Shown: positions 35,401 through 61,600 of the stretch, in pieces
Numbering within the stretch: the stretch's first letter is position 1
How the letters are laid out: every line of letters starts with the position of its first letter
Assembly (NCBI GenBank): GCA_905178155.1
Contig: CAJINV010000016.1
Location: forward strand, 1,497,824-1,561,823
Source: Amoebophrya sp. A120
Lineage: Eukaryota; Protista; Dinoflagellata
Direction: 5' to 3'
Length of the DNA: 64,000 nucleotides
Notes under the pieces: model-generated
What the model saw: the letters and a program-made list of their open reading frames with translations, nothing else
The model's database searches: none
Told to the model about the DNA's origin: nothing
Program-made: the position numbers and the translations under genes

Positions 35401-38400
35401 TGGTTGGCAACATCGCGATTCCTCCCTGGGGGATTTGCATTTGGTGGTCCTGCGACAGCTGCATTCCGTGATTGTCACGGCTTGCTTGTTCCTGCGATGC
35501 CTGTAGCATTTGGCCTTCAGCTCCTTGGAGGAAAGAAGATGAACCACCAGTCGCAGTTGCATCAGTAGTGGTCTGCTCAGTAGGAGCTTGTTGCTGGTGT
35601 TCTTCTTGCTGCCCCGACGACGGCTTTGAAGTTGATGTGCTGCTTGTGGACGACGTCGACGAGGACGTCGCCGCGGAGGAGGTTGCTGTCGTCGTGGTGG
35701 TACTCGGTGTCGTCGTGGTACTCGGTGTCGTCGTGGTCCTCGGCGTCGTGGTGTCGGAAATCGTGGTGGTAGAGTGCCCGGTCGTTGGGGAAGTCGTACT
35801 AGAACTGCTGCTCGTACTTGGACTCGAACTGCTGGTGCTCGTCGATGGAGTGGATGTTGTAGTAGACGATGACGTCGTAGTAGAAGTAGAAGAAGTTGTA
35901 CTACTAGCAGGAGCTTCAGAAGTTGTTGTCGAAGAAGAAGAACTTGAGGTTGACGACGTCGTGGAGGTTTCAGGCAATGTAGTTGTGGACGACGACGAGG
36001 AGGTCGTCGTACCATCAGCACGACCATGTAGTTCTTCATGATGATCCTCCTGCAAAGACAATTCCTCCGGAATCTTTTCTTTATGCCGTTTCTGCATCCG
36101 CATCGCGTCTCGCGAACTGCCTGCGTTTGCCCGAGTCGACCAGGCAGTAGAATCATGGTGCGTCCTCGAGAGCGCATCCGCATCAATCGGCTCCTGGTAC
36201 ACAATGTCGCCGTCTTTTTGCGGTTCGAACGGAGGAAGCTGTTGCTGATGCTGTTCTACTCGCTGTTGTGGATGTGACCGTGGGGGAAGCGCTTCGGGAT
36301 GTTGGAACTGATTTTTGTTCTGCGCAGGCTGCTCGTGGTCCACTGCCGCAGGAGCCGCGCGTCGGGGCCTTTTGCCGTACAATTTGTTGTACATCATTTC
36401 CTGGCGGGGTCCGTAGTACCTGGATGGACGAGGTCGCGGTCGCGGCCTGCGCGGTCCGTACGTGCCCGTCGACGGGTAACCACTGGACGGAGGTCCGCGA
36501 GGTCCGCGTCGCGAACCGTAGGTAAACGGATGGCTCTTGGCCCCGTCAAGCGGTGGTAGAGCCTCTGGCGCGGTCCCACTGGACGGAGGTCCGCGTCGCG
36601 GACCGTAGGTAAACGGATGATTCTTGGCCCCGTCAAGCGGTGGCAGAGCCTCTGGCGCCGGCGTCCGGGGTCCATACAGTGTGTGCTGCGGGCCATGGGC
36701 CGCTGCAGCAAACTGTTCCTCGTAATTGTGGAGTCCTTGATTCGCGCCGTCCAGTTGTATCTCTGGAGGAGCTACACGAAGTTGTTGTTCACCAGTGTGG
36801 GCATCAGTATACGGAAGTTGTTCATGTTGATGTCCAGCGTCATGATGATCTAGCGGCCGTGGCGCTTGCACATGGAGATGATCGTGGTAGAAATTATCCG
36901 AAGGTCGAACTTGAAACCCTCCTTCCACATCCCCTTGCTCACCCCCTGCTTCGAGAAACGCCGACTGCATGCGTATTTGCGGCTGCGGCTGTCCCTGGTA
37001 GTACGCTGGATAAGGCGCACCACTACCCTGTTGCAGACCCAGACCTCCCGGAGCACCAAAGTTCCCCGGCTGATGCGCGCCCCGGCCGTTCACGATCGGC
37101 ACGGCGTTAGTATTCCGTGAAAATTAACCATCCCCATCCACTTTCTGCTTGACAAACGCAGATTTTACTACATGTTTTGCAAGACAAATTGGATGGGGAT
37201 GGTTAATTTTCAAGGAATAGTTCGGCTGTCGCTCAAACAAGGGCGATCCCGGCCTCCCTGACGGGAAGAACTCCTTGCTGGACGGCATGCCCGGTCGGGA
37301 TCCTGGCACCGCAACCTGCCCATCCCCCGGGGCGCCCGCGAGCCCGAACCCGCCGAAATTTTCGTACTGGACTTTCGGTCGTTCCTCGTTTGGAATCGCG
37401 AGCAATTTGTACTCCTCCGCGAAATCGACAAACTCGTCGTTGTTCGCCGTTTCTTGCGCTTTGTCCGACACGATCAGCTGGGGCACGTTCGGCCGGGGGT
37501 AAAACCGCGATTCGTCGGTTCTCCCGTCGTCCGCGAGTAACCGCTCGTACTCCGACTTCAAGTGCTGCACCTCCCTCGTCACGTACTCACTCGGCCCGTA
37601 TCAAATGCAAAAATGTCTGGGTCTGGAAGCTTGTGATGCTGGGTGGCGTATCATGAGGCGGCCACAAGTGCTGGCTCAGCATGACAAATGTGTGAGCTTC
37701 TAGGTGTTGCCTATTCATTCTGCATGACAAACCGCTTTTCTGCATGACAGAAAAGTGGGGCTCTTGGAAAACGCGCATGACAGACTTTGGGGTCATGCTG
37801 GTAGAGCATGACAGACCTTCCATTCTTCCAGACCCAGACATTTTTACAGTCCATAGCCCGTCCGCACAACCTAACGGCAGTCGTGCGTTGTCCCGCAACT
37901 GCTTCTTCAGCCGCAAACAGTTCCCGATCCACTGATCTTGGTATCAAGTGCAAAAGTGTCTGGGTCTGGAAGAATTCACGTTTGTCATGCTTGTCTGGCG
38001 TGAGTCTTAAATCTGTCATGCGCGTTACCCTAGAGCTCCGCTTTTCTGTGATGCAGAAGCGCAGTTTGTCATGCAGAATAGGCAACACCTAGGAGCTCAG
38101 AAACTTGTCATGCTGAGCCAGCATTTGTAGCCTCATCATGAGACGCCAGCAAGGATCACAAGTTTCCAGATCCAGACATTGTTACATTTGATACTTGGAA
38201 CCGCAGCGCCATTTTCAGGATGATCTTCGTGTAGTCGGGGAGCTCATACCGGTCGATATCGCCCCCTAATCGGACATCGATATAGTACTCGTGGGTGCTC
38301 TGCGCGATTTGGTTCTTCGCGGGGTCGAATTCGGCGGAATTCTGGTGGTAAAACGGAATCATCTCGTGGTCCGCCGTGTCGAACGACCCGTCGCCGATTA

Positions 38401-41400
38401 ATTGGAACGAAGCCGGAGCAAACAACAATTGCGGGTGCGGCGAGAACGTGATGCGCTGCCGGTGGAGTAAAGCGAGCTGGGGGCTAATGTTGTAGGACGT
38501 GGATTCTCCTGTTGGATTCAATTCCTGCCCGTTGTCCTGTTGATCGTGTTCCTGCCCGGTTGTGTAGTATCCACTTGTCGGGGAGTAGAAATCAGGGCCG
38601 ACCCCGTTGCTCTCCCTCCGGGGTTTGAACCCGCCGCGGATCAAGTCAACGTTGTACCCGTTTTTCTCCGCCTCCAACTCCTGTGCGGACTTCGGTTTGT
38701 CCCGGTGCTTGTAGTGCTCGGGCTCGGGGCCGTTGTGGTACTGCATCGTGTACAGGCCCGCGTGCTGCTTTTTTTCGTGTTGCTTTTTTTCGAGAAACAC
38801 AGAACTAGCAATTGTTGCCCCAGTGCCGATCCCATCCGGCGACTCGTACAGGATTTTGCCGTGGGACGGAACAATCGCGTCGACAAAGGCAGAAGTAGAG
38901 TACTGCTGATGTTTTTTGCCGTTCAATTTGCTCTCCACCATGGTCTCGTTGTCAACGAACTTCTGGTTTTTGTCGTCCACAGCTCGCGCTGGTGCCGCTT
39001 GATTTTCAACACCGGTACTCATCTTCATCACTCGCTGCTTTTGCAAAGCCGCTGCGATAGTTTTAGTTGGTGATCTGGTGTTTTCATTCACGAACTTCTG
39101 CGTTGTTTTTCTCGGACGATGACCACGCGGATGGCGCTCGTGGAAGAAAAGATCCTTTTCTTGCAAAGCGCGTGCTCCACCTTCAGCTGAATTGTGGTAA
39201 AACAAATCGCCTGGAGAAGTCGCTTCGGGTGCGTTGGAATCTCCTTTGTCAAAAGTAGAATCCTTGACACCCTCGCTTTCCTGCATAAAAGAAGATCTTC
39301 GCGGTGGAACTGCTACTGCTCCCGGCGGCGGCATCACAGCCGGCACGTCCTGCTTTAACCGCCCACCCGCCTCCATCTCCTGCAACTCGGTTGGCTTGTT
39401 ACTCCCTTCCACATATTGCTCCTTTTCCGGCCTCGCGAACTTCGGCGGCCGCAGCAGGTACTCGTGCTCGCCCCACACATCCACCGGGATCTCCTCCCGC
39501 TTGCCCTGCTGAATGCGCCGCAGAATCTCCTGATGCTATCCAGAAAAAAACACCCATCCTGCCCATCCATTTTTGGCATGACAAACACTGGACCTGGAGC
39601 TTTTTCATGTTTTGCATGACAAATTGGATGGGGCAGGATCTTTTTTTGTGGATAAATGCCGGTCGTTTTCCATAGTCTCCACCCGGGACCGCATGTGATC
39701 CCCGCCCAGCTTCGTCGGCAAATCCTCGTACAGATAGGTTTCGTTCGCGAAGTTGTCCTATCAAATGCAAACATGTCTGGGTCTGGAAGATTCTAAACTT
39801 GTCTTGCAGAATTGCCATGCCCCATGAGGTCTGGAATGCAGGACCTAGCGTGACAGATTCTGCGAGGTCTCTATCATGCCTGTCCTGCGTGAGAAACTTC
39901 CTCTCATGGTTCTCAGAAAAGGGCAACTTTTGGTGATCGCGCAAGACTGATTTTTGTGTGATCCACCGAACGCATCACAAGTCTCATCCTTCCAGACCCA
40001 GACATTTTTGCATTTGATATGTCCTTCCAATCCTGTTCCTGCACGTACCGCGCCTGGCGCTCCTCGCGCTGTTGCTTCTCCGCCGGGGTCTCGTTGTCGA
40101 TTTCCCAGTAGTACTCGTCGTTATTTTCTTCCTCCCGCTGCTCCTCCTCTGATTTCGGTGCGGCGGGAAACATCGGGGGCTGATGCGGTTGGTAGTACTC
40201 GTCGAAATACGCTTCATCCACATACGGCCCCTGTTTGTCCGCCTCTTTCTGCTCACTTTCTTTGATGACCAGCGTCAAACTGTTCCACTTCGGTAGCATT
40301 TCGTTACTCAGATCGCGCCCCGCGTCCGCGATCACGAAACAGCCGTGGTTGTGCACGTAACTGGTCACGCTGCCCGCCTCCCTGGCTTGGGAAATCGTTT
40401 GGGTGAACACGCCCATCTCCGCGTACATCTGCGCCTCCCGCGCGAAGGGGTTCGGGTCCCCGGTGAGAATGAAGGTTTTCAGCCGCAGCTGGTCCGCGGT
40501 TTGCCGGTTTTCGGTTTTCCCTAACGTGTCGTCGTTCGCGTGAAACTGGGCCCGGAACCGGTCCGAAAAGTGCCGGAGGCGAAAGAGTTCGCGGATGTCC
40601 AGGTAATGCTCCCCGTAGATCTTCAGCCGGATGGTCTGCCGCACTTCATCCAAATCCTCGTCGACGATCCTGTGCTCCTCCATGAATTTTTCCTCCAAAT
40701 CCTGCCGGAGATACAATTTGTTCTGCATCACCAGCAACTTTTCCAACATGGCCGCCGCGTACAGCAAGCCAATGTCGAAGGATTCCAGCGCCTGCCGCGG
40801 GCTAAGTGGTCCAATCTCCTGGTCCAGATGGTTCCCGTTCCCGAACGCCTCGCCATTAGCCCGTCGCTTGGCCTGCTCCACCATGGCGCCCGCGAGCATC
40901 TGGCCCGCGCGCAGGTACTCGCGGACGGTGCGCTGGCAGTTGTCTTTCGCTTTCTATGGGAGTGTCAGGATTGAAATCGCCAAAGGTGAAAAAGTTTGTC
41001 ATGCATAAAATGCATCCCACAAAGTGCCTGTCTTGCAGAGTAGGCAAGTAGGGCAGATTGTTAGCCTGTGCCTGTTGAGGGGTAAAAATAAAGATGCTAA
41101 AGTAGCATGACAAAGGGCGTCGCCCTTGCCCAAACAGCATGACAGACTGGATTTGGGTTCTTCCCAAATTTGTCATGCGCCGCTTGAAAACTGGCCGCCA
41201 ACTGGTATCCGTTTTATGCGCCGCAAATTCTTTCAACTTTGTTGATTTCAATCCTGACACATCCATACTTTCTCTTCAAACGTCACCTTCGAACCGAACA
41301 AGCTGTCCTGGAAAATGCCGGACGTGCCGGTGCGCTTGTTGCCCGCAAACTCCTCGAAGGGATCCAGACAGACGTGCGTCACAATCCGCATCTCCTCGTT

Positions 41401-44400
41401 TTTCTCGTTCGATTTGGGGTCCCACTCCCCGATCAGCATGTCCTTTTCCTTCTGGAGAAAAGACGTACGAGAGTCGTGGTGAAGATTTTGCTCACCCACT
41501 CCGTGTGCTCCACCGGCACCAGCATTGCTATGGTAATCGACTTCCGGTTGATGTTCATCATGACCAGCATCTGCAGCACCACCCTGCAAAACCTGCTGTA
41601 CCATCGGTACGGCTCTCTGTCCAACTCCCTGCGCACCCCGAGCTGCGGCTCCTGGTGCCATACCCGCGAGCGCCGCCGCCATGCCCGCGCCTGCCTTTGC
41701 AAAGGTTCCCATTGTTTCCAGGTTGTGCAGTTGTCGCTGAGGAGGTGCTCCTGCTGATGTTCCACGTGGAGTGGATGATGGGGCTCCTGCTGTTGAGGAC
41801 GGGATCTGACGATGTGCATCTCCTCCGTGCTGATGGTGATGAGCCGGTCGGCGCTCTTGCTGGTCTCCTTCCGAATGCGCGGCAGCTGCCTGCGCTGGAA
41901 AGGACGACCCTGCTTGAGATGAGTGCTGTTCGGGCCAGTCGTAGTACTGCGAGCTTGCTGGGTCCGGTTTGAGATCGTCCTGTCTGCCGCCCTGGTATTC
42001 TTGTTGTTCTTCATGCTCCTGGTGCTGCTGTAACTGTTCTTCCATAGGTTGCAACTCATCATGCGCTGCAGGAAAGTGCTGTTGAAGAATGTGCTGCCCC
42101 ACGGCTGCGGCTTGTTGTCGCGCAGCGTCGGCGCCGTGAGCTGCGGCTCCTAGTGCCATACCCGCGAGCGGCTGCACCATACCTGCGCTTGCCTTTGCAA
42201 TCGTTGCCGCTGCTCCTAGGCTCTGCGAAAGGCTTCGTCGAGGGCGAGGCGCTGCACGAGGCGGAGTTGCTGAAGCGAGGTGAGTATCATGTGAACCTAC
42301 ATGAGCCGGTCGCTCTTGGTCTCTCTCAGGAGATTGCGGCGCGCCAGTTGTCCCTGGTAGTTGCTCGAGCCAGGCGGAGTACTGCGAGCCCCCTGGGGGG
42401 CCCACCGGCTGGTCCTGTGCGCCGCCCGGCTCTTGTTGAACTGCTGGAGACAACTCTGCTGTCTCTTCGGTCGCATTAATAGAAGCTTGATGCTGTTCTA
42501 GCTGCGCCTGGTGATCCAGTTCTTCCTGCGCATGCAACTGCTGCTGCACTCGTTCTGCTTCGTCTGCTTCAACACCCTGCAAACTTCGCACAAGCGGTTC
42601 CATTTTGCTCCGCGCCGCCTCTGTACCGACCGCAGCCACTCTCGGCGCCATGGACGCGATTTGCGGCAGCATACCCATACCTGCGCCCGCCATAGTCAGC
42701 ATCTTGTTTTCAGGATTATTCTCGATAAACGAAGCATGATCTACTTGTCCTTCCGATTGCGCGGGTGCCTGCACTGGCACGGCAGGTTGATCTTGTTGAA
42801 CTGCTGGAGACAACTCTGCTGCCCCTTCGGTCGCATTAGAGACAGCTTGATGCTGTTCGAGCTGCGCCTGGTGGTCCAACTCTTCCTGCGCATGCAACTG
42901 CTGCTGCACTCGGTATGCTTCGTTTTCTTCAACATTCTGCAAACTTCTCACAAGGGGTTCCATTCTGCTCCGCGCCTGCTCCTTACCAACCGCAGCCACT
43001 GCCGGTGCCATGGGTGCGAGTTGCCGCACCATACCGACGCCTGCGTTCGCCAGGGTTAGCATTTTTTGCGGATCATGCCGATGCGCTGTTGCAAGAGCCT
43101 CCTCTTCCTTTTCGAGGAAAGAAGTAGGAGCCTGCGGCTGTCCGGGCTGCGGCGCTGTTCCAGGCTGTTGCGCGAGGGAGGCAGCTCCTGTCGCCGACGC
43201 GAGCTGCCTCGCTCGCGCAAGTACTTGTCCTTGGCCTTGCGAATTCCCCGGCGCCGCACCAGTCGGCGGAGGCGAAGGTTGAGCAAAAGGTTGCTCTGCC
43301 AGCTGCTGTGCACCAGACACGAAACCCTGAAGCGGTTGCACAAGCTGCTGCGCTGCATAATTCCAATTCGCAGGGGCGGCCATTATCCCCGTGTTGCCAG
43401 CTGCAGCACTTCCTGGTGCAGCTTGTTCCCCTGCTGGTTGTAAGAGTTGCGTCGGGATCATGTTGTTGACCACACCAGCTGCACTCGGCAGCTGTTGCAC
43501 CGGAATCCCGAGTGCTTGCATTGCTCTTTGGGCCCGCGGCGCCATCCCCGTGAGCGCGGTCGCCATGCCTCCAACCGCCTGCGCCACAGGCTGCGCGTTT
43601 TGCACGTAAGCAGCAGCGGCTTTGCCGAGAGCAGCGGGAAGTGCACCAAACAGTGGAGCGGTCGGAAGTGGCTGTGGTGCAACTACGCCGGGAGCGGCAG
43701 GGTAATATCCACCACCCGGAGCAGGAGCAACAGGACCAACATAAGGGCCAGGTCCTCCCGCGGCAGGAAAAGCTGCAGCTGCTCCAGCCGGCACGCCGGC
43801 GGCCACCCCGGGCTGCATCATCATGTTGTTCGCAGCAGCGCCCTGTTGAGCGTGAGCCTGCGGTTGACCAGCACCGCGACCATTGTTATTCTCTGCTGCG
43901 TCGACCTGTCTCTGGGCTTCCGCTAGTTCCTCCGTGGTGACATTCTGCAGCGCGCCATACACCGCCGGGTTTTCGTGCATGTTATGCAACACAAATTTAC
44001 CGCACAAACAAAAAGTTCATCACAGAAACGTGACACTTCTGACCCTGAGCTGACCTATGAAAGGACTTGTCATGCTCTGAATGACGTTGTGCGAGAGAAG
44101 TTGTCGTGTCATGCAGCAGAGCTACAGCTAGCATTTGTCGTGTACGGTAAAAACGCTCCTCTGGATACACGGGGCGAGGTTCGTAGAATCTCCGGTGCAG
44201 CTCCTCCTGATTCTCCACAACTTCCAAGAAGGAAGAGGACCCGCCACTACTTCCACCACCAAACCAGTTCCCGAGCCGGTTACTCAGCCCTTGCCGAATG
44301 CTCCCGAACCAACTATTGTCCGCCGGAGCCGGAGCGGGTGCCGGAACCGGCTCCACGGGGACCGGCGGCGCAACCGCGGCTGCTGCCGTTGGAGGAGGAC

Positions 44401-47400
44401 CTCCAGTCGGTGCAGCTGGAGCTCCTGGAACGGCGCCCGAGGACGTGGCCGCGACGGGAACAGCTGCCGCAGGTTGTTGGGGCGGAAGGCCCTGTGGCTC
44501 TACTTGCGGTGGCAGAGGACCTTGCGGCAGCTGTTGTGCCGGGGGAACCGGGGAGGATGAACTAGTACCTTGTGACAATTGTGATGGTTCTTCCGACGAC
44601 GGCGGGTTGTTGTTGACTCCAGGAACGTTCGCGGTCCTGAGAACATCTGTCGTGTCTGTAACGACAGGGCTAGTATTGCTCCCTGTGCTCACTGCGTTTG
44701 TCCCCGAAGAAGGATTTGTTCCTGTTCCCGCACCTCCTGCAGCCAAAGCTGGTTGCGGTTGCGCAGCCGCGGTCTGGGGGGCGGGTGGTCCTTCCGGCTG
44801 GTCGTGGTCATGGAGGTGCCGGCTCTTGTGGTGCAGGTGGACACCGTGGTGCTGGTCCTCGGCAGCCGCAGATGAAGGAGTTTGCGCTGTTGTGTCTGGA
44901 TTCGCCAGCACATCGGTGGGATTCGTCGTGATCGGCTGGTACGCCGCCGGAGAGGACGGCTGCTGCTGGGAAGATGAAGTGGTTGCAGCTATTCCTGTTC
45001 CTGCAGTTCCATCTTGTGGCGGTGGACGAGGCACAGATGCACCAGAGGTTGTAGGCGAAGATCCCGAAGTAGATCCCGCACCGCCTCCACTCGGCGCAAG
45101 CGCCTCGGCCGCCGGCTGCTGCTCCTGTGTGTGGACCTTTTTGCCGTTGTTATCGAGGAAAAAACACCCATCCCCATCCAATTTGTCATGCAGAGCATGC
45201 ATAAAATCCACTATCTGTCATGCAAAAAATGGATGGGGATGGGTGTTTTTTCCTGGATAGTTGTCTGTTCTGTCGTAGTCGATTTTCTCGCCGTGCTCGT
45301 CTATCAAGTGCAAAAGTGTCTCGGTCTGGAAACTTGTAATGCTAAAAATGAATGATAGACGCACTGCAGTACGCAGCTCCTATGCATGACAAATTTTTTG
45401 GCTGCCATGTCTTACGTATTCCGCATGGCAAACAGCGTTTTTGCATGATAGGCAAGAGCGTCTTTTCGTGCCTATGCAACACAGATTCTCGAATCATGCC
45501 AGACAAGCATGACAAACTTGCATTTTTCCAGACCCAAACATTTTTACATTTGATATCGTCCACATCGGAATCGGTCTCAGAATCTGTCCCTGCGGTATCG
45601 TCTGAGTCCTCGTCGTTAGCGTTGTGATGCTTGTGGTGCTCATGGGGGTTATGTTGGTGCTTGTCATGCTCATGTTGCTCACGAACGTGACTCAACGTCG
45701 CTGTGTCAAGATGATCCCCACTTGGTTCGGCATTTTTCCTGGCAATGCCATCGGCGCGATGGTGGTTATGACGGTTGTGGTGGTGCTGGTGTGCCCCAGT
45801 TGCTGCTCCTGCAGTTTCTTCTGGTTTTTCTGCGGCGCCGAGCTGCTTTGCTGCGGCCGCTTTTTCGGCTGGCGTTGACGGTGGCGGAACTGCGGCGGCG
45901 GCCGGTTCCGTTGCAGTACCACCGGCAGGAGGTGTTCCTGTTGAAGAACCTCCAGTTGCACCTGGTGTTGGGCTACTTTGACCTCCCCCCGCTCCTCCGG
46001 CAACAAGAGCAGGACCACCATCACGACTGGCAGCAGAGCCGTCATTTGATGTTTTAGACGTCGCGCGCCACACGGATGTTGGAGCTGCAGGTGGAGCACT
46101 TTCTGGCCCAACTCGACTAGTGGATTCTGGTGAGGCCGCAACATTCGCATTTTTCGCTGCCAAAACCACATCCTCCTTCGCGTTCTCCACCCTTTCGTCT
46201 TGCATTTTCACCTCGTTCGACCGTTTCGCCGCTTCCTTCTGCTTGTTCCGCGCACCCGCGGAACCGTACACACTCCGTTCCTGAAAAAACTCGTCAAAGG
46301 TCTCCGCGTTGCTCGCCGCGTGCTTCGGCGGCGGCATCCCCCTCTCCCGCGCCGCGAATTCCAACAGGTGCGCGGCCGAGGTGACCACGTCTAACTTCAG
46401 GTAGATGCGCTCCAACAGCCTCGCGGCGTCGAAGACCTTGCGCTTCTCGTCAATTTCCGCACTATGCATTGCAAAAGTATCGCACTAGTTCTAGTATGAA
46501 TTGCATGACAAATTGACTTAGCATTACAAATTAAATTTGTAGTGCTGATTTACCTTGAAAAAGAAATTTGTGATGCATAAATGCAATTACTACGAGTACG
46601 ATACTTTTGCACAGGATACGCACACGCGATCAGCAACGACCGTTCCGCGGTCACAATCGCCGCTTCGGCGACGTTATCAAATGTAAAAATGTCTGGGTCT
46701 GGAAGATTGCAACTTGTTGGTTGGTTGGATAGCGCCTGTCGCCGGTGCAGGTCCCGCCCTCCATCGATTGCGATCCGGAGTAGCCGGAACACAAGGCCCT
46801 AGTGGCACAATCGATCGACGAAGCCCTTTATAACCAGGTCACGGACATCCGGCTGCCGTGGAGTCATTCGCGGGCCAGGCAACGTCTAGGAGCTACGGAT
46901 TAGGGATCTTGATGGGCGAGACAGGTCACAGTCATCCGCCTGCCCATCGAAGACGAGCCAGGTCACAGTCATCCAGCTGCGTTCACAGTACGAGCCAGGT
47001 CACAGTCATCCGGCTGACTGCATAAGAACGTCCCCGGCGGCAATCATCGAAGTGAACCCATGGGAGGAGCCGGGAAATGCCAAAGACAGGAACCCCCTGA
47101 CACATGCCAACTGAACCCAATAACCACATTTGACGACGTGGAGAAAGGGTAGACCCCGACTGGCATACAAGAAAGCCAGAATGCACCGCTGCGTGGTATT
47201 TTCCCGGGCAAATTTATTTATACTGAACCCCGGGCACGCCACCCGGAGACGGACGAAGTCCAGTTTTTACAAAGCTCCCGCATAGCGGCTATCTAAATGG
47301 GGCGGGGTCAGTCGTCCACCGAATGGCTCGCGCGAAACGGTGACCAGTGGACCCCATGCAAAAGCCTCTTGGACTTGCCCCTCTTTCTTTGCGCTAAGAC

Positions 47401-50400
47401 CCCTTTAAGCTAGTATCTAGTTAGTGCACTGCTACTGCTGCCGCCTGCTACTACTGCCGGGCTGTGGCCCCCCGGCTTGCCGAAGACGAATGGCATGGGG
47501 CCCCCGGCGGTTTGTTCTTTTTGGCTTTTGCTAGTTTTTGCTTCTGGGCCGGGTCCCGTCGGCTTTCGTTCCGCGGGCACTGCCGCGGCGCTGCTCGCTC
47601 ATGCTGCTCGCTCATGCTGCTCACTCCTCCGCTCTCTCAACTGCTCTCTCTGCGCCATTCTTTCTTCTAAACGTGCTCATGCATTCTACATAACAGTCTA
47701 TCAGGGTTTGTAAGGAAACTAGAAAGGAAGTGATGATGATCTACACAGACTACAGCTACATCTACAGCCCCATATGCAATTTTTCCCCGCCCGCGAGTAC
47801 GATTCCTGTATCTTTCTGTGAAGCCCCACGACCGAATGAGAGCAAATGACAGACCGACACCAATTCCAAACCCCCACGCCGCGCATGCAAAAATAGGGCG
47901 AATATACTTGAAGGGCTCAATACGTTCCCGCAAGGATATGCGCCGCGGCGTCACAAATTTCCTGCAGAAGATCTGCAGGGCTCATGACCTCGAGAATAGC
48001 AAACCGATTTTCACCTTGTCATGCTAAATCTGCAGCATGCAAAAATCTGTGTTGCATGATTACCAAAAGTCGTCCAGTTTTGACGAAGCCAGGAGGTAGT
48101 TTGTCATGCAGGATAGGCATTAGAAAGGTCTCGCAGAATCTGTCATGCTAGGTCCTGCATTCCAGACCTCGCGGGCCATGGAAAAGCAGCACGGCAAATC
48201 GCGCACTCTTCCAGACCCAGACATTTTTGCACTTGATACACGTACTGGAGAAAGGTCTTCCCGCAGCGCAAAACCCTATACCCCGCACTGCGCCAGGTCA
48301 TCAAGTTCAGCTTTTCGCGCCGCAGGTCGTTGGACAGTTTTTGCTTTTCATGCACAGGGTTTCCATTACTGTCCACCCCGGTCTTCATGTTGATCTCCTG
48401 CGCATGCAGCGCTTCCGAGATCAAATCCTCATCAGCCTCATCCGGAAATAAGCCAAACGTCGCGGAAACGGAGGAGTCTGGCTTGGCCGCCACCACCCGG
48501 AGTTTCTCCCCGGAAGCGGAGGGTAAAGCTGAATGCGGTTCGAATTTCAAGCTTCTCCGCGGTAAAAACGTGTACTGGTCCACGGTGTGCTGGTGGGAGA
48601 ACGTGGTGGAACCTAAGCCGAAATTCGGCGACTCTGGCAGGTGGAAGGGCGTTTCCGGGTGATTCGAGTTGCCCATAAACTTCGACAAATCGTACCCGCC
48701 CGCGTTCGCGGGTGTCATCCCCGGCATCAAACTGTTTTGAAGATTATCCTGCGCAAAAGTACCGCACTCGTACAACTAATTGCACCAGTCATGCATGACA
48801 AATCTTGTTTCTTTAGCGAAATCAGCATTACAAATTCCATTTTTCCTTCTGAAAAAATTTGTATTGCGATTTATTTTTATACTAGTACGATACTTTTGCA
48901 ATGCATAAAGATTCTGTTGTTGCAACGCCAGCAAGCCCGATGAACTACTGCCGCCACTGATCGACGTGTCCCAGACGATCGGGCCGAAAATGATGTCCTC
49001 GATCTGGTTCGCTCGCTCCGCCAGATCGACATGCTTCGGCAAATACGTGAACTTCTGGAAATCCGCCGTGTTGTCCCCGGTATTCGTCTTGTCGGGGCCT
49101 TTATCAAATGTAAAAATGTCTGGGTCTGGAAGGTTCTGAGACTTGTCATGCACATTTTGCATGAGCCATGATGTCTGTGATGCATGCCCTAGCATCACAG
49201 ATTTTTTGAGGGCTTCTTGATGCCTATTCCGCATGACAAATGCCCTCCCCGCGTAGCAGGCATTACGCTCCCTTTGCTGCCCATGCAATACAGATTTTTT
49301 TGTAATTCAAATTCAGCATCACAAGTTGAATTCTTCCAGACCCAGACATTTTTGCATTTGATAGCCTTCCAGATCGTTGTCCCAGTACCGCGCATGGTCG
49401 GGGTCCTCCAGATTCCACAAGTGTCCCGTCAAAGAACTGTCGCTCCACGCGATCCATCCCGCTTCGGCAATATGCATTGCAAATATGTCTGCGTCTGGAA
49501 GGATGCGAACTTGTGATGCGCATTTCGCAACACAAACAAATCTCTCATGCAGAGGCAGCAAAAGATGCCCATTTCCTGTCACCAAAGTGGGGGATTTTTC
49601 ATGCGGATTAGGCAATGCGAAAGATTCTCGAAATCTGTCATGCTAAGGCTTCCATGCCAGACCTTCTGTGTCATGCAAAAACAGCATGACCTTTTCCAGA
49701 CCCAGACATATTTGCATTTGATAAGCCAGCTGTCGGTGCAAATCCTCGTAGTCGACGAAGAGAAACAGGCGGTCCCGGGGCATTTTCTTCGGCTTCAGCA
49801 TCTTGTTCAGTTGCGTGGACCGAAGCTGCTGCTCCACGTTGATTTTCAAATTTTCACTGTCATAGTTCCGGTTCGAGTAAGCCTGGTCATAAAACTGCTG
49901 CTGGGTGGCCTGCGGTGGTTGTTGCTGACCATTTTCCGCGAAGGAAGAAGATCCTCCACTTGTAGTTCCCGCTCCTTTCTTCCCCGATCCTTTGGAGCTC
50001 GTTTTTTGATTTTCTCGCCCACTCACCACGTCCATTTCAAAGTCCCCGTACGGGTTCCAAATTTCGTCCCAGATCGCGCCGTTCGTGTCCGGACGCTCTC
50101 TTAAAATTGATATGGCGTTCTCAACTGTTACATTCTCAAGTGTTACATGGATTTGTCATGCAAGAATGGGAAAAGTGAAAGGGGGGAGGTTGCATCTGTA
50201 GCACTACAAATTCCGAACAGATTTGGGTGCTGTTTAGCCATTCGCAAATTTGTCATGCGAAGCCGCTTGATCGTGTGGATCTTGATGATCATTTTGCACG
50301 ACAAATCATGTAAACAGTTGAGAATGTAACGTTTGAGAACGCCATAATTGATCTGAAAACCGTTTCGTCGTCCACATCCACGACGTACTCGTGGTTCAAC

Positions 50401-53400
50401 AGCTGCCCACCACTGTTCTTCCCGGAGTTAGCACTACTTCTCGCAGAAGTTGTTCCTCTCCGCGCCCGTGCGGCGTCCTCGCCACCGCCGGTGATTGTGT
50501 TTTTCAACCTCTGCAGTATGCAATGTAAATTTCCTGTACGTGTACATGTACAAAATGCATGACAAATTTCGCTAACTTGCAGTGTCCACCTTGTCATGCT
50601 AGACTAGGATTGAAGGCAAGTTTTGTCATGCAGTGGCTGCATTTGTACGTGTACAGGAAATTTACTGTGGATATGCAGCATAGTTTCCTCGCTCGCGTAC
50701 GGATCTCCGTCCAGCTCCTGCGGTGTGTATCAACTGTAAAAATGTCTGGGTCTGGAATTCCAACTTGTCATGCTGATTTTGGATTCTAAAAAAATCTGCA
50801 TTGCATGAGCAGCAAAGAGAGTCCAAGTTTTGCTACACGGAAAGAGCATTTGTCATGCGGCATAGGCATCAGGAAGCCCTCACAAAATCTGTGCTGCTAG
50901 GGCATGCATCACAGACATCAGGAGTCACGCACAATGTGCATGACAAGCCTGGCAATCTTCCAGACCCAGACATTTTTACATTTGATAGGGTGACCGCCTG
51001 CACAAACTTCTGCATTTTCCGCGCGTACTCCACGGTTTTCCGGTACCGCTTTTTCAACTCTTCCTCGGTCGCCGGGGGCTCCCAACGGTTCGTCCTCTTG
51101 CTGTCGATGAAGGACATTTTTTGGAAGTCCTTTTTCGTCTGCTCGGCCCACATCAGGAAATTCCGCTCCCTGGGGATCCGTAGGGCGCAGAAAGCGAGTA
51201 ACGGGGAGGTAAAAGTGGAAAATTTATCCGATAAATCCTTCCGGACGTACGTCAGTCTCGCGAGTTCAAAACATTCCCGCACTTCCGTCATCTGCCCAAC
51301 GAAAGCGAAGGAACCCCAGGACTCCGGGAAGAGCATCCGTTGCTGCATGAAGTGCTGGATCATCAACAGCGCGTGCGGGCCGGGCAACGGGCGCCGGCTG
51401 TTCCCGCTGATCGCCGAACCCAGCTCTTCGTCCAGCCCCGGCGGGAAAAGCTGGATCCCCGCTGGGTCACCGCCCTTCAACTGCCGATACTTACGGGACT
51501 TCTTCCCCAACTCGGAATTCTGCCCGTCGTCGAAGTAGCTGGAGTAGCCCATCACCCCCCGGATTTGCTTGTGCAGGGCCTTCCGAGGATAGCGAAAGTT
51601 GTCGACTCTCTGCCGATACAGCTGTTTCATGTCGATGTCATTGGTCGAGAGGAGGTGGTATTTCCGCAGAAGTAGGGCTATGCGTTGCAAATATGTCTGG
51701 GTCTGGAAGAGCAAAACTTGTGATGCTGCATTTGGATGCTAAAAAAATCTGTATTGCCTGAGCTACAGCAAGAGAAGTCAAATTTGGCTACGCGGAGACG
51801 GCACTTGTCATGCAGGATACGCATCGATAAGCGCTCAAAAAATGTGTGATGCTATGGCATACATCACAGACATAGTGGATCATGGAAAATGTGCATGGCA
51901 AACTTGTCGTCTTCCAGACCCAGACATATTTGCACTTGATAAGCCCCTGCTCGCCGGAGATCCCGATGTTTTTGTTCAAGGGGTCGAAGAACAACTTCCC
52001 CGCCTATCGCAAGAACAAACTGTTTCACTGTGAACTTGTGATGCAGAAAAAGCATCACTGAAGTGTTTGTCTTGCTACACATGCAAGACAGTGGACTTTT
52101 AGCTGTGTTTTCCCTTAGGAATCTCGCATGGCAAATCTTCTCTGTCATGCGGAACAAACTTGTGATGCAAAAGTTGCAAAATCCTTACAGTGAAACACTC
52201 TTTTCCCGTGATACCGCCAGCGCGGGGTTCAATCCGGACCGCTTCTTGCAAAACTTCTCGTTCACCGCATACGCCAGGTGGATCTGCTCCAAAAGCAATT
52301 TCGCATCCTTGATCTGCCGTCCCTGGTTGAATAAATTCGACACCTTCTTCGCGACGGAGGAATCGCTTTCCTATGCTGTGCAAAAGTATCGCACTCGTAC
52401 TAATTGCTTTTATGCATTACAAATCTTTTTCTTAAGGCAAATACGCATTACAAATTCGATTTGCAATGCTGAGCTAATTTGTATTGCAATTTCTACTAGT
52501 ACGATACTTTTGCAGTTCATATTTCCAGCAGCTCGTCGAAAATTGCGGATCGCAAATCGTGCTTCAACTTCGTCTATCAAATGTAAAAATGTCTGGGTCT
52601 GGAAGATTCTGAGACTTGTCATGCATGTTTTGCATTGGCCATGATGTCTGTGATGCATGCCCTAGCATCACAGATTTTTTGAGGGCTTCGTGATGCCTAT
52701 TCCGCATGACAAATGCTCTGTCCGCGTAGCAAAAATTGCATTCCCTTTGCTGCTCATGCAATACAGATTTTTCTGGAATCCAAATTCAGCATCACAAGTT
52801 GCATTCTTCCAGACCCAGACATTTTTACATTTGATATCGTCTGATAGGTCGGCCAGTAACTGTTCGCGAAAAATTTTTTCAGCATCGGCCACCCCTCGTC
52901 GGACCCGCCCGTGCTGGCGTCCAACCACCGCCGGACGGTGTAGGACTGGTGCTGCCAATCGAGTCTTTGTTCGCAAGAAAGCCGCATGTGGTCCGCCGCG
53001 GCGCGGAAGACGTCCTGCCGGAGCCTCTCCAGGTCGATCTCGTAGTCCCCTCCAGTGACTTTCGTGTGCGTGAGAGAGGACGCAGTGCCCGCGCCAACAG
53101 CACCGATCCCGATCATCAACGGCAACGCAACGGGCGCAGCGCCAATGGCCGCGGCGACGCCGGCGGCGGCGGTGGCCGCGCCGCCGAGAAGAGCCGCACG
53201 GGAGGAAGGGAACAGGCTCTGGATTTTTTGGAGAGTTTCAGTGGTCTTGAAAGTCTTTTCATCCGGCTGCAAAGAAGATCATGAAAAACGCATAGATTTT
53301 GACAAGAAGAGGACCCTACGTGCGCATAATGCTTGCCTGATAGGTCGCATATCACAAGCTGTGTGGTTCATCTTGCATGGCCAGCATATTATACAAAGTT

Positions 53401-54776
53401 CGAAAGTACTTCTACCTGCGGCGTCGTGATTCCCAGCTGGTTCCCGAGTGTCTGCCGCGTTTTCACCAAACCTCCGAGCCCGGCGGACTGCAAAGCGATC
53501 ACCACGTCTTCCGGAATCGGCGCCGGAAAGTACGCCTTACCGGTGTTTGGCACGTCGTTGTACTGATCCAGATACTCGTTTCGGAGGATCCCGCTGGCTT
53601 CCATAGGATTCTGCTGCGGCACATAGGGATTTTGCTGCTGGTAGTTGTAGTTGTATCCGGCACGACGCTGCTGCTGCTGCTCGAGAAAAATTGTGGTTTC
53701 CCCAGTTTCGTTTGCAGTTGCCGGTGACGAAAAACTCGATTTTACCCCGACATCATCCTGCTGCTGCTGTTGGTCGACCTGAGGATGAAGATGACCTTGT
53801 TGTTCATGAGCTGCAGCAAAACTACCTCCACCAAGAAGGTGATCTTCTTCAACATCTGCGAGGCTGATCCGCACCCCGTCGATGACACTGAAGTCGTCAG
53901 TATTTTCAGCGTTCTCCACCTCTTCCTCGCCACCCCCTGCAGTTTTCAGAAACGACGAGGACGAGGAGGGTGTAACTCCCGATCCCGCTCTGTGTCCATC
54001 GTGCGCATGATCATGAGAATGTTCGTGAAGATTGTGATGGTCGTGGTCATGGCCGTCGTCCCCGTGTAAGCAGCCTTCATGACCTCCACTATGATCGTGG
54101 CTGTGACCACCTTTCTCCAGCGGGTGCTTCTGCTGCTCCCAGAACGCCGTCTTCACTTCCTCCTTTACCTTGGTGAAAACCAGCGTGTCCTTCGTGAATT
54201 TGAAGGGCTTGTTATGACAGTGCACAACTCCCCCTCCGCCTCATGTGCTGTAATGCAAAATACCAAATGCAAATCCACTCTTTCCCCTTTGGCACTCCTT
54301 GCATGACAGATTCCGGAACGACCCGAAGCAGAACTAGAATCGGTCCGGAATTTGTCATGCAAAAGCTGCATTTACGCGAAGACTTCTGTTGCTGCTTATG
54401 CCCTTCAAATGAGGAGGAGGGGAAGTTGTGCACTCTCATACTTGTCCTCCGTGCCGTCCTCTTTCGGCTCAAAGTTCTCGAGGTTCTCCTCCGTCCACAG
54501 CGGACCAAAGAACGCAGCGACCGGGAGGGGAAGAAATTTGAAAAGAAGGCAGGATAGTAGGATGGGCAGGAGAATAGCACCGCACTTCGATACTAGTCTG
54601 GAGTTTGAGATGAACGTAGTGCCGAATATGGACGACCCGGCAGCGGAGACAGTAGTAGAATGCTGCTGATGCGCCTGTGCCCCGACTTTACTAGCAGCCG
54701 AAGAGATGACCTTGTCATCTCTTGCCGCGGAGCAGCGATGTTGTCTTTCTCTTTTCCTTTTGGCAGAACCCACCAT
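29466..54776 (-). CDS. Giant putative secreted protein (~6150 aa), 25 introner introns plus 1 GT-AG intron
   Basis: Removing each of 25 elements plus one DR copy, and intron 53267-53415, gives 18462 nt of continuous frame from ATG 54776 to TGA 29466. N-terminal hydrophobic CGAILLPILLSCLLFKFLPLPVAA; His-, Pro- and Thr/Ser-rich tracts. Start uncertain because a GTAAGT donor lies at ~54797. No known family recognised. Confidence 0.78.
31186..31333. mobile_element. Introner, family C
   Basis: TATCCACTGTAAATTT...AAATTTGTGTTGCATA; DR tcggc. Confidence 0.87.
32756..33016. mobile_element. Introner, family A
   Basis: Family A TIR; DR atagt. Confidence 0.9.
34042..34186. mobile_element. Introner, family B
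   Basis: GCAAAAGCATCGCACTCGTA / TACGAGTACGATACTTTTGC; DR agttt. Confidence 0.9.
36478..36665 (-). repeat. Coding tandem repeat, 78-bp period
   Basis: APEALPPLDGAK(N/S)HPFTYG(P/S)RRG present twice. Confidence 0.85.
37111..37219. mobile_element. Introner, family D-like
   Basis: TATTCCGTGAAAATTAACCATCCCCATCCA TIR; DR gttag/gttcg. Confidence 0.88.
37599..37855. mobile_element. Introner, family A
   Basis: Family A TIR; DR gcccg. Confidence 0.9.
37942..38193. mobile_element. Introner, family A (inverted relative to 37599-37855)
   Basis: Family A TIR; DR cttgg; interior is the reverse complement of the neighbouring copy. Confidence 0.9.
39537..39654. mobile_element. Introner, family D
   Basis: TATCCAGAAAAAAACACCCATCCTGCCCATCCA; DR gatgc/aatgc. 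Confidence 0.87.
39759..40019. mobile_element. Introner, family A
   Basis: Family A TIR; DR tgtcc. Confidence 0.9.
40955..41267. mobile_element. Introner, family E
   Basis: TIR TATGGGAGTGTCAGGATTGAAATC; DR ctttc; similar to 56975-57285. Confidence 0.9.
42425..43075 (-). repeat. Coding internal duplication, 360-bp period
   Basis: KMLT.A.AG.GM..Q.A.MAP.VAAVG.E.ARS.MEPLVRSLQ.VE..EA.RVQQQLHAQEELDHQAQLEQHQA..NATE..AELSPAVQQ present twice. Confidence 0.9.
43983..44167. mobile_element. Introner, diverged singleton (family C-related)
   Basis: TAT...ATA ends, partial IR TTTACCG.ACA; DR catgt/cacgg; removal restores frame. Confidence 0.7.
45151..45259. mobile_element. Introner, family D
   Basis: TATCGAGGAAAAAACACCCATCCCCATCCA TIR; DR gttgt; highly similar to 60762-60870. 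Confidence 0.92.
45302..45555. mobile_element. Introner, family A
   Basis: Family A TIR; DR tcgtc. Confidence 0.88.
46463..46618. mobile_element. Introner, family B
   Basis: Family B TIR; DR cgcac. Confidence 0.9.
46675..48238. mobile_element. Introner, family A, carrying a nested 1.3-kb insertion
   Basis: Left TIR at 46675, remainder resumes at ~48015, right TIR ends 48238; DR gacgt/cacgt; spliced FLQYVAEAAIV. Confidence 0.85.
46718..48013. mobile_element. Nested insertion, possible solo LTR
   Basis: TG...CA ends; CTTGT duplicated at 46713-46717 and 48015-48019; internal repeats CAGGTCAC(A/G)G(T/A)CATCC x4 and GCTGCTCGCTCAT; no convincing ORF. Confidence 0.6.
48745..48907. mobile_element. 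Introner, family B
   Basis: Family B TIR; DR aagat. Confidence 0.9.
49102..49363. mobile_element. Introner, family A
   Basis: Family A TIR; DR gcctt; very similar to 52575-52836. Confidence 0.92.
49471..49723. mobile_element. Introner, family A
   Basis: Family A TIR; DR ggcaa/agcca; opposite orientation to 49102-49363. Confidence 0.86.
50111..50346. mobile_element. Introner, family F
   Basis: TIR TATGGCGTTCTCAA..GTTACATTCTCAA; DR attga. Confidence 0.9.
50517..50673. mobile_element. Introner, family C
   Basis: IR TAAATTTCCTGTAC; DR tgcag; similar to 1390-1540. Confidence 0.9.
50728..50987. mobile_element. Introner, family A
   Basis: Family A TIR; DR gtgtg/gggtg. Confidence 0.9.
51679..51941. 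mobile_element. Introner, family A
   Basis: Family A TIR; DR agggc/agccc. Confidence 0.87.
52005..52213. mobile_element. Introner, family H
   Basis: TATCGCAAGAACAAACTGTTTCACTGT / ACAGTGAAACACTCTTTTCCCGTGATA; DR ccgcc. Confidence 0.87.
52372..52521. mobile_element. Introner, family B
   Basis: Family B TIR; DR tttcc. Confidence 0.9.
52575..52836. mobile_element. Introner, family A
   Basis: Perfect TIR of >30 bp starting TATCAAATGTAAAAATGTCTGGGTCTGGAAGA; DR tcgtc. Confidence 0.93.
54213..54440. mobile_element. Introner, family G
   Basis: TATGACAGTGCACAACT / AGTTGTGCACTCTCATA; DR cttgt. Confidence 0.9.
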
Positions 54777-55652
54777 ATTTTCTGATTTCAAACTTACCGT
54801 GCTTGTAGAAGTGAAGACTCGTCAATTATACAGGTAGATCATAGTACAACAAGCACGTCGTGCTACAAACTGGAATTCACCAGGACGTCAACGATTTGCA
54901 GTCGTTCATGTCACAACAAGTAGGTCAAGCAAAAACGCGATCGGTACACGAACACGATGCGGATGCATTGCTTTGCGATACTTATCATCTGAGCCTGACC
55001 TCGAAAACTAGCGCGGCCGGGCAGAGAACATCATCATGATCGAAACGCGAATCGAGTTCGAGATCGAGCGAGACGAATAAAACGAGACGAAATCAATGCA
55101 CAACCAAACTCAGACGATGTAATTGGTCTCAACTACTGCGAATGCGAAACGAGAATTGGTATTGGATGCATATGGCACGATCTCCAGACTACACTCGTGC
55201 ATCAACATATGGCTTCAGAAGTTCTTTTCACCTCTCTAACTCTTAGTCGATCGATGCGAAAGCGAAAAGTGACAGTGAGCCGAAAACGATATAAACGAAG
55301 TTCCTCGTGGAGAGGCAGATGAGGTGATTTGCTGATACATCATGCCCTTTGTTCACAAGAAGAAACAGCGGATCTTGACAGATCATGCATGGTCCATTCT
55401 AAGAAGTAAAGAGCAAGTTGGTCTGATGGACACGCATGAACTGGAACATGATGCGGAAGTGGCATTGCACTAAAAACGTCATCGCGCCTACAACGATTGA
55501 GTTTCGCCATTGAATTTCGCTTTCAAGATTTTTAGTATTCATGCTCGATTAGTTCGCTTTCAGTTTCACATCTGTCGTCTGTGGGGAACTGCTTGTGTTT
55601 TAGCAGCAAAAAAGACACCAGGTTGTAAACGGAAACGCACATCATCTCTTCT

Positions 55653-58600: not shown

Positions 58601-61600
58601 GGTGTACTAGCGGCGTTCGTTCAGGAGCACCTGGATGTAGATCCTGATATTGCTGTAAAAGTGGTTCGTCAGCTTGTTGTTCTATCAAGTGTAAAAATGT
58701 CTGGGTCTGGAAGGTTCTGAGACTTGTCATGCACGTTTTGCATGAGCCATGAGGTCTGGAATGCGAGACCTAGCATGACAGATTCTGTGAGATCCGTATC
58801 ATGCGTATCCTGCGTGAGAAACTTCCTCTCAACTTGGTCAAAAGTGGACAGCTTTTGGCATTCATGCAACACAGATTTTTGCACGATCCAGAATTAGCAT
58901 TACAAGTTGCAACCTTCCAGACCCAGACATTTTTACAATGCATATGCTCTATTTCAACATCAAACCTCCGCTCGCTCATGGCGTTCAGAAGTATCGCAAG
59001 GAAAAATCCCCCCTCCCCATATTGAAGAGGTAGGTTTTCAAAAATTTGTGTTGCTGATTTGAGGTCACAAATCACGTCTGTGTTGCAAGAAGACAAGGGC
59101 AGCAGCTTCCGTCCCATTATGGAGGCGGTTTATCATGCTGTTGAGCAAACATCACCGACGCTTTTCATGCTAAGCGCCTAAGTCAAAGCCTCTCTGCTCA
59201 GGCTTGATATGGGTCTGCAGTCCTCTCCAGCAAGACAGATGTGATTTGTGTACTCAAATACAGCAACACAAATTCCGCTTTCGATGTGGGGAGGGGGGAT
59301 TTTTCCTCACAATAAGAAGGGGTGTGAAGTTCTTGTCCGTCAGAAAACTGTTCTGGTAAATGCCACTGTGCATGTGAAAACCGTGTTTGCCGTCGAGAAC
59401 CAAGTCGCTGTCGTGGAGTTTGTTGATCTTATCCGCAAGCACACCACCTTTCAGTACGGTGCTAGTCTCGTCGCCGTCAGCATTGGAAGCTGCCCTGGTC
59501 GACGTCCCAGCATGATAGTAGCAAGGGCTGCTCCCATGATCTTCGGAGGTACCACTGGAAGCAGCCAATATGTCGAAATTCGCCGGGGGAACTAACACTT
59601 TCGGGATGTAGCACCGCAGAAACCCAAGCCCGGTCCGCTTGATCCGCTCGACCACGGAATACTCGGATGGACAGCTCGAGTGAAGGAGGAGAAAGTTCTC
59701 AAGCTCTAAGGAGCGAGTAGTTCTGGAAGTTGCTGCTGCTGCAGCTGTACCGTCTGCATGATCATTTTTCGCGATGAGTACACTGCTGCTGCTGCTTCTG
59801 GACCGGCTGCGGCCGCGCGGAAACGGGAAGCTGCATACTTCTGGCCGCGGTATCAACACATTCGCGATGGTATCCTCGCTGATGCTTGTTGCCAACGTTA
59901 ATATTCTTGATGAAGCTTTCTTGGAAGAAGATTTAGATTTTGCTTCGCCATCCCCGCCCGTTACGTTTTTCTGACGATGCTCAAAGTTTTGACAGCTTTG
60001 CCTCGCTTGCCAATTTCGGAAAGCCGTTTGTACCCGATGCGGGAGGTCGTCGGTTTGATGGTTTGAGCTTGTCCTCTCGCTGCTGCTGGTGCCAACATTC
60101 TTCTCCGGACTGTAGAAAAATTTGCTGAACCACTGCTGCTCCTTTTCGCGGGTTTTTTTTGTGAAGAAATTTGGTCTGGTTTCCTCGGTCAGCCAGGATG
60201 TTGTCAGGTTCATCAGACAGTGCAGGGAGGAACTGGAGCTAGTGGTACAACCACCGTCAGAAGCACGATCCAAAAAACTCTTCGGGCGGAAATTCGACGC
60301 GCCACACCCGCGGAGAAGGTTTGAGAAGGAGGAGGTTGGCGGGAAAGAAGAATCCAAAAAGCTGGAGTCTGAGTCTGACACAGACTCAGACATATCGTGC
60401 CTTTTGCTGGCTTTACCCCTTTTCCATCGTGGTTTCAGATAAAGACTTTCCAGCCGTATTCTCCGGGCTTCGAACAGATTCTGGTTTGCGTTGTTGTGAT
60501 GATAATTCCGGCTCGTCGGAGCATTTACATGATCTCCAGGATAATTGGAGGACACGAGGAGGTTTAAGAGCTTGTTGAGTCCGAATCCCCTGCTCGTCTC
60601 GCGAACGTCGCCACGACGTCCTCTCGGCAAGAAAGAGCCACCTCGTGCTCGTCCTCCAGGCTCCTCTTGTAGAAGATCAACAAAAACGATTTCCGGCACG
60701 ACAAAGCGGATCACATCCTTCATTGCGAAGGGGATTTGCACCTTCCGCGGCTCAAACATGTTATCCAGGAAAAAACACCCAACCCCATCCAATTTGTCAT
60801 GCAAAACATGCATAAAGTCCACTATTTGTCATGCAAAAAATGGATGGTGATTGTTGTCTTTTCCTGGATACATGTCCGGATGGTTGCACACTTTCCGCAA
60901 GTGCATCAGCACGTGCATTTTGCCCAGATAGTCCTTCTTGCCCTCCTTCTGCATGACCTGCTGGACGTACCTGCGATTAATGAACTCGTCGTACAGAAAC
61001 CGCTGTCGTTTTGACAGCCCGCAGGGGACCACGTGCTCAATTTTCGCGGGCAGCTCCTTCTCCACCTGCTTTTTCAACCGGCGGAGAATGCACGGGCGGA
61101 GCAGTCGGTGGAGCCGGTCGACGATGTTATTTTGCTGGTCATTTGCTCCTGCAGATGAAGACGAGGCATTTTTTCCTTATGGATTGCAAAAATGTCTGGG
61201 TCTGGAAGATTGCAACTTGTTATGCTGTTTTTGGAGTCTAAAAAAATTTGTATCGCGTGACCAGCAAGAGGGGCGCAATTTGTGTTACACGGACAGGGCA
61301 TTTCTCATGCGGCAGGCGCATCAGGAAGCCCTCTGCAGGTCTGCGATGCTAGGTCATGCATTACAGGCATCCTGGGTCATGAGAAATATGCATGACAAGT
61401 CTTGCATTCTTCCAGACCCAGACATTTTTGCATTTGATATTCCTGTGCCTGAAACAACAGAACTTGGGTTCTTCTTGTTCAAGTCCTTTTTCAAAAAGGA
61501 CACGTCCAAGCGACCCTTCTTTCCCTCCTCCTCCGCGGCGGCCGACTCAACAAACTGCACCAAGGGGTTGTTAAACCACTCTTTGAAGTCCTGGTGCGAG

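Follow-up and report, generated by a model that had tools for sequence, protein, structure and literature searches.

How can introns of one family be removed from a transcript when their copies lie in both orientations within a single gene? The question is raised by a 64,000-nucleotide (nt) stretch of the genome of the dinoflagellate Amoebophrya sp. A120 (assembly GCA_905178155.1, contig CAJINV010000016.1, positions 1,497,824 to 1,561,823; hereafter the window), in which coding sequence is interrupted by transposon-like inserts known as introners. An earlier note on this DNA had described copies of one family, here called family A, facing opposite ways in a minus-strand gene, and had concluded that their removal cannot depend on a polar donor, branch and acceptor. 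The analysis presented here confirms the observation and points to a different conclusion: all splice joints available are compatible with one cut that is offset in the direction of the transcript, 1 nt before the opening TAT of the element and 4 nt after its closing ATA.

The introners of A120 are an already published element system (Farhat et al. 2021, PMC7789003), and a translated exon of the host gene is a 100% match to a database protein (P0001) whose source label is Amoebophrya sp. A120. In the main and supplementary text of that study, the A120 introners share a TAT start, seven variable bases, a run of A, direct repeats of 3-5 nt, a length of ~240 nt and non-canonical ends, and a hairpin model is put forward for them. 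The elements of the window likewise have TAT, seven variable bases and at least three A, carry a direct repeat over the boundary and are repeated in the genome; the inverted ends, reported there as 8-20 nt, are ~30 nt long here. A scan of the window for TAT...ATA segments with complementary ends yielded 37 short elements, to which a 1,564-nt variant adds a 38th and a decayed candidate at 43983-44167 a 39th. Family A consists of ~260-nt elements with ~30-nt inverted ends (TAT...ATA), flanked by a 5-nt direct repeat. With terminal inverted repeats, a target duplication and no coding capacity, these elements have the properties of miniature inverted-repeat transposable elements (MITEs), or non-autonomous DNA transposons with terminal inverted repeats. 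An Rfam scan of the window gave no match, and no orthologous locus for an empty-site comparison was found among the best matches listed.

Five copies of family A (49102, 49471, 50728, 51679 and 52575) share one minus-strand gene, two facing one way (orientation 1) and three reversed (orientation 2). All copies named in the earlier note lie where it had placed them, start with TAT and end with ATA, and their two ends agree at 26-32 of 32 terminal positions. Interiors were compared after trimming 35 nt from each end. Those of 49102 and 52575 share 91% identity when read in the same sense, and those of 50728, 51679 and 61178 match these two at 77-85% as the reverse complement only (58-61% in the same sense). 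Copy 49471 is the weakest call, with 63-66% identity reversed versus 56-59% in the same sense; a shuffled control gave 52.6 +/- 1.9% (maximum 57.8%), and the alignment backs the reversed orientation. The orientations proposed for three copies elsewhere in minus-strand frames also held, since the match is in the same sense for 963 and 58683 (70-76%) and only in reverse for 61178. Altogether, the window contains 14 copies of family A, whose interiors divide 8:6 by orientation, and 11 of these (6:5) lie in the 6,152-codon frame of the host gene (Table 1).

Evidence for removal of the elements came from the reading frame and from sequencing contigs. Excising the ten elements of 48745-52836, each with 5 nt, produces a 924-codon minus-strand frame, and keeping any single one of them cuts that frame to 501-801 codons. 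Four runs (X1-X4) were aligned to positions 45800-53400 at 99% likeness; the sequences are contigs rather than reads, X1-X3 represent one sample, and the assignment of X1-X4 to RNA is a guess, no run being on record as RNA. All 12 elements of this segment are absent from contigs of the probable RNA runs, each gap being the element plus 5 nt, and X4 gave no joint. Copies facing either way are skipped: one contig holds the joints of two oppositely oriented copies, 49102 and 49471, those of 50728 and 52575 are found on one contig each, and 51679 is skipped as well. Removal with non-GT-AG ends, a property of the A120 introners, was thus seen in probable RNA for 12 of 12 elements from one sample. 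When the alignment was run at 90% likeness, other copies swamped the signal and no exon joint was listed, and a run of raw reads (X8) gave 101 partial reads, none of them informative.

An alternative source of such contigs would be excision of the elements from DNA in a somatic copy, similar to the eliminated sequences of ciliates. While the TA-bounded ends and the merely probable RNA status of X1-X4 are consistent with DNA excision, contigs of a genome-like run (X5) continue past the repeat unbroken, reaching 25-28 nt into elements from the adjoining exon, arguing against a common joined DNA form; this evidence comes from the top 15 joints listed, and contigs drop rare forms. Moreover, the intergenic bins over which X5 is flat have no coverage in X1 and X2. 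The pattern fits removal at the RNA level, and we regard DNA excision as the least credible of the alternatives. It has also to be asked whether the skips are template switches of reverse transcriptase over a hairpin between direct repeats, the inserts themselves being dealt with by, for instance, ribosome hopping. If the enzyme stalled, one would expect it to have copied the entire downstream repeat before it jumped, a register that is excluded at 49471, 50728 and 51679; a single 646-nt contig spans three joints unbroken, and the offset of the 1,569-nt skip is that of the short ones. These data make template switching very improbable, even though hairpins with direct repeats are described as a setting for this artefact and all of the RNA evidence consists of contigs derived from complementary DNA.

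A larger sample for orientation relative to transcription was obtained by a pattern scan of one other assembly, in which at least 139 loci (~440 stretches estimated) hold 247 distinct elements, 133 of them of family A. The 5-nt direct repeat is perfect in 202 of these 247 elements and in 28 of the 38 in the window. Strand calls for the family A copies of the other assembly were made at junction level for 54 and at locus level for 66, with the two methods agreeing in 76 of 80 cases; four copies with poor direct repeats and nine without a strand call were left out of the count. The codon model had been trained on the long frames of the window, such that its 38/38 minus calls there are partly circular. 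Among 134 strand-called copies, 14 of which are from the window, the orientations are balanced (66:68, p=0.93); these are counts of gene-strand calls, and the evidence for removal comes from the window. Family A is not alone in this respect, because at least three other families occur in both orientations relative to minus-strand genes (e.g., 46463 and 34042 versus 52372 and 57329; 37111 versus 45151 and 60762).

Both orientations work because inversion swaps two near-identical 30-nt ends. At each of the first 34 positions, the base composition of the element's 5' end in the transcript shows no difference from that of the complemented 3' end (130 elements). Orientation independence therefore shows only that there is no one-way signal in the interior: since inversion barely alters the terminal 30 nt on either side, a polar donor, branch or acceptor could still lie inside the ends, and the conclusion that removal must be non-polar does not follow. 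No orientation-specific essential signal was found in the interior, and GT and AG are at background. In none of 68 copies do the final 50 nt contain the word CTRAY, and words of weaker fit fall within the symmetric end.

Two orientations as such are expected for elements with inverted ends, and are known from other introners. In Polarella glacialis (bioRxiv 10.1101/2020.10.14.339549) and Aureococcus anophagefferens (Huff et al. 2016, via PMC10228655), inverted-end elements are described as forming introns either way, so that two-way insertion, which had been thought to set these introns apart from spliceosomal ones, has been reported for introners with canonical sites. Those introners splice at GT/GC/GA and AG sites supplied either by the element or by the target duplication, a reading open to at most 34 of 259 elements here, and they are biased to one orientation, whereas no bias is seen in family A.

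A perfect direct repeat masks the position of the cut and a decayed repeat exposes it; hence, only decayed copies are informative. The number of nucleotides permitted before TAT is 1-5 at 46675, 1-3 at 49471, 0-1 at 50728 and 0-2 at 51679, and the sole cut common to the 12 joints lies 1 nt before TAT and 4 nt after ATA in the direction of the transcript. The cut thus appears to be offset and, contrary to the earlier note, polar. For orientation 1, the relevant copy is 963, where a database protein (P0002) has Glu across the junction and a mirrored cut would give Asp, an argument that assumes that the junction of the P0002 gene model was derived from reads. Protein searches for the 963 junction via the upstream exon, and for the junction of one locus of the other assembly (L030), gave no match. 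If the cut fell exactly at TAT, a stop codon would arise at 39537. The 1/4 rule predicts T as the second intron base, and T is second in 9/9 of the top A120 non-canonical ends listed in Table S4 of PMC7789003; 9/9 of the ends listed for strain A25 start with TT.

The bases at the junction are free. At the inferred cut, elements start with GT in 77/259 cases and end with AG in 19/259, both at background level, and a GT/GC/GA...AG reading is possible in any register for only 34/259, which separates these elements from canonical U2 introns, with their GT/GC/GA donor and AG acceptor. The base composition of the direct repeat is that of the flanking exon, and the exon starts with A or G in 124/215 cases versus a background of 55%, showing no purine preference. 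Comparison of the two copies of ten decayed direct repeats in the window reveals 13 mismatches, 9 of which are synonymous; in this small sample, that exceeds the expectation if the intronic repeat copy decayed freely.

The ends of the elements are conserved. TAT is kept at 341/349 anchored ends of family A, and at 160/168 ends outside the scan pattern. Divergence between nearest copies is ~6% at end positions 8-30 and ~4% in an internal 8-nt motif, as compared with 12-13% in the interior and 27-29% at end positions 4-7. The internal motif is symmetrically placed, and 106 of its 116 matches in the window fall inside elements, which cover 9,357 bases. A terminal stem is predicted from position 8 inward in the five copies of the host gene (z -5.8 to -13.6), with the outer seven pairs often open, for example in 51679. 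End positions 4-7 (e.g., 49474-49477 and 51682-51685) vary twice as fast as the interior and the end words are common across families, a pattern that suggests end exchange or conversion. G at end position 15 was considered as a mark of the 3' end, with 19/23 discordant copies in agreement (p=0.0026, 1 of 28 positions), and was rejected when held-out copies gave 12:10. The 5' end is closer to the family consensus in 63 versus 38 copies (p=0.017), in one orientation only; the figures for other families are 36:41.

With moderate confidence, we favour end-guided, fixed-distance splicing of mirror-ended inserts, most likely by a re-tooled U2/U5/U6 spliceosome. Mirror-image ends put the same first and last 30 bases into the transcript whichever way the transposon-like insert faces. 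The inverted ends would fold as a stem that brings them together, and TAT and ATA would serve as landmarks for a machine whose cuts lie at set distances from them, one base upstream of the opening TAT and four bases downstream of the closing ATA. Since the two repeats would be cut at equivalent points, splicing would leave a single, restored copy of the 5-nt target duplication. Recognition by U1 may have been replaced by the intron's own stem, or by proteins bound to it, with intron positions +2 to +4 (T, A, T) perhaps being a remnant of the donor site. From the second base on, this T-A-T resembles yeast-type and U12-type donors.

In favour of a spliceosome, A120 retains one without a detected U1, an Amoebophrya with canonical introns has U1, and Fritillaria offers a precedent. 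According to the text of PMC7789003, A120 has kept nearly all spliceosomal proteins together with U2, U4, U5 and U6, with U1 undetected. In Fritillaria borealis, as described in bioRxiv 10.1101/2025.08.15.670264 and PMC11282704, non-canonical sites derive from the inverted ends of non-autonomous transposons, and a modified U2 spliceosome removes such introns; these have fixed end dinucleotides (AG-AC, AG-AT), whereas the end bases are free in Amoebophrya.

Several observations weigh against this model. The four RNA joints that are informative for the offset are all of orientation 2 and all from one sample, a 2/3 offset is excluded by a single contig (50728, X1, depth 3), and the offset in orientation 1 comes from one annotation-derived residue (P0002, copy 963). 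A is next to last in 8/9 of the A120 ends listed in Table S4 of PMC7789003, the outcome expected from a mirrored cut or from aligner bias. The stem itself shows no sign of selection for RNA pairing, in that G-U and A-C mismatches are about equally frequent (130:130 in 130 elements, 251:270 in 260), and no co-variation of the two ends is seen at the variable positions 4, 5 and 7. Given these negative tests, the ends may be conserved for the sake of a transposase or a binding protein just as well as for a stem, and TAT for a transposase rather than for splicing. GT and AG at background count against a spliceosome, and a 30-base-pair stem would hide the donor. The suggestion that removal is specified by the terminal stem or by symmetric protein-binding sites is partly supported: the signal lies in the symmetric ends, the internal motif is conserved and a stem is predicted, while the pairing tests gave no sign of selection on it.

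Some of the same data would be explained if the cut followed the element's own orientation or slid within the direct repeat, with no single rule in the direction of the transcript. The RNA-informative copies share one orientation, the Table S4 ends show N-T starts and A-N ends, Farhat et al. (PMC7789003) call the splice sites variable relative to the hairpin, and the 9/13 synonymous mismatches are what sloppy cutting would favour. We nevertheless consider a sliding or orientation-following cut unlikely: four decayed repeats share one offset, P0002 rules out the mirrored cut at an orientation-1 copy (963), and cutting directly at TAT introduces the stop codon at 39537.

The main rival accepts the same ends and offsets, and assigns them to a separate, non-spliceosomal endonuclease-ligase that docks on the terminal stem or the internal motif. 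We view this as possible though doubtful. The layout is similar to that of the Euglena code, in which a spacer, a paired triplet, a stem, a triplet and a longer spacer follow one another (PMC12501133), and a review describes euglenid introns as being released as circles, with no lariats. There is also no base preference at either junction, and the low divergence of the internal motif and its concentration inside elements would suit a docking site. However, A25 and A120, despite their differing repeat families, both have T at intron +2, and T at this position is the most conserved donor base; U1 is undetected in precisely the two strains with such introns; and bulge-helix-bulge geometry (a 4-base-pair helix with flanking bulges), expected of tRNA endonuclease introns, occurs in just 3 of 259 elements.

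The non-conventional introns of Euglena are the closest working analogue of the splicing that we favour, though their motifs and spacers are not those found here. As given in the text of Nomura et al. 2025 (PMC12501133), their code is 5'-N3CDG-/-CH'GN5-6|R. They resemble the A120 elements in lacking GT-AG, in having complementary triplets near the ends, an inner stem, a short 5' and a longer 3' spacer, in junctions blurred by direct repeats, and in a probable MITE origin. They differ in using CAG/CTG triplets with spacers of 3 and 5-6 rather than TAT/ATA with spacers of 1 and 4, in the purine at the exon start, for which there is no preference here, and in belonging to an unrelated lineage. 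As to base-paired ends, a stem is predicted for the A120 elements, while neither a G-U excess nor co-variation was seen. The Euglena introns were tested by knock-in (PMC12501133), whereas those of A120 are known here from sequence and contigs. More tentatively than the model of end-guided splicing, a one-line code N|TAT-stem-ATA-N4 can be put forward, by which mirror-ended elements would be removed precisely in any orientation and with any junction bases, a spliceosome without U1, GT or AG measuring from the stem and converging on the Euglena code. If true, such a code would make tens of thousands of transposon insertions harmless.

Whether the fixed offset is new depends on the published descriptions of these introns. 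PMC7789003 presents the splice sites as variable or unknown relative to the hairpin, as opposed to the single 1/4 offset seen here, and searches of the literature, together with the main and supplementary text of that paper, brought up no mention of balanced orientations or a fixed offset for Amoebophrya; figures 3, S19 and S23, the bioRxiv supplements and subscription papers lie outside this scope and could hold one. The phenomenon is a real feature of a known system, and the 1/4 cut rule proposed for it is probably unreported. About 65% of Amoebophrya introns lack GT-AG, and the published account, as far as its text goes, leaves their cut sites undefined. A fixed 1/4 offset, if true, would define a substrate independent of orientation and junction bases, allow correct gene annotation, predict the positions of lariat or circle junctions in existing RNA data, and account for the spread of the elements through coding sequence at almost any site. 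Such a rule would be simple and testable.

Table 1. Positions of the host gene and of the introners discussed (orientation 1, as 49102; orientation 2, reversed)
Feature	Coordinates	Setting	Direct repeat and cut	Evidence of removal
Host gene	29469..54821	minus strand		6,152-codon stop-to-stop frame once 25 elements and one GT-AG intron (53219-53415) are removed
Family A introner, orientation 1	52575..52836		perfect 5-nt repeat (52570-52574, 52837-52841)	267-nt skip, X2
Family A introner, orientation 2	51679..51941		repeat 3/5; cut 0-2 nt before TAT	268-nt skip, X1, X2, X3
Family A introner, orientation 2	50728..50987		repeat 4/5; cut 0-1 nt before TAT	265-nt skip, one X1 contig
Family A introner, orientation 2, diverged	49471..49723		repeat 3/5; cut 1-3 nt before TAT	258-nt skip, X1, X2
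Family A introner, orientation 1	49102..49363		perfect 5-nt repeat	267-nt skip, X1, X2
Long (1,564-nt) family A variant, orientation 2	46675..48238		repeat 4/5; cut at least 1 nt before TAT	1,569-nt skip, X1, X2, X3
Other-family introner, also with TAT...ATA ends	48745..48907		5-nt repeat	skipped in X1, X2
Other-family introner	50111..50346			skipped in X1, X2
Other-family introner	50517..50673			skipped in X1, X3
Other-family introner	52005..52213			skipped in X1, X3
Other-family introner	52372..52521			skipped in X2, X3
Family A introner, orientation 1	963..1220	separate minus-strand gene	repeat 3/5	P0002 protein excludes mirrored cut
Family A introner, orientation 1	58683..58944	inside 1,700-codon minus-strand frame		no RNA joint among those listed
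Family A introner, orientation 2	61178..61439	same 1,700-codon frame as 58683		no RNA joint among those listed

The host genes were characterized from their translations. P0001 spans just 492 residues of the 6,152-codon frame, and Pfam returned no family for the 4/4 proteins scanned, the 6,152-codon frame having been scanned in two parts only, with no match. The 1,700-codon minus-strand frame at 55656-62588 contains nine elements; its sequence at ~56900-57300 resembles what we take to be the C-terminal motifs of an SNF2-type helicase.

The long variant at 46675-48238 contains ~1.3 kilobases of additional non-coding sequence, with a longest open frame of 104 codons, and is yet skipped as a single intron. 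Its left 295 nt is 96% identical to positions 301-598 of a locus in the other assembly (L123), where the flanks are different, which implies that the long form itself has moved. The decayed element at 43983-44167 has TAT...ATA ends with 11/30 complementary positions and a direct repeat of 3/5. Removing it by the same rule, in a region without RNA cover, joins frames of 1,637 and 4,213 codons; if this element is spliced, a strong stem would be dispensable. Finally, the window contains tandem-like duplications at 62782-63741 and 42431-43065, with a spacing of ~355 nt and 73-85% identity.

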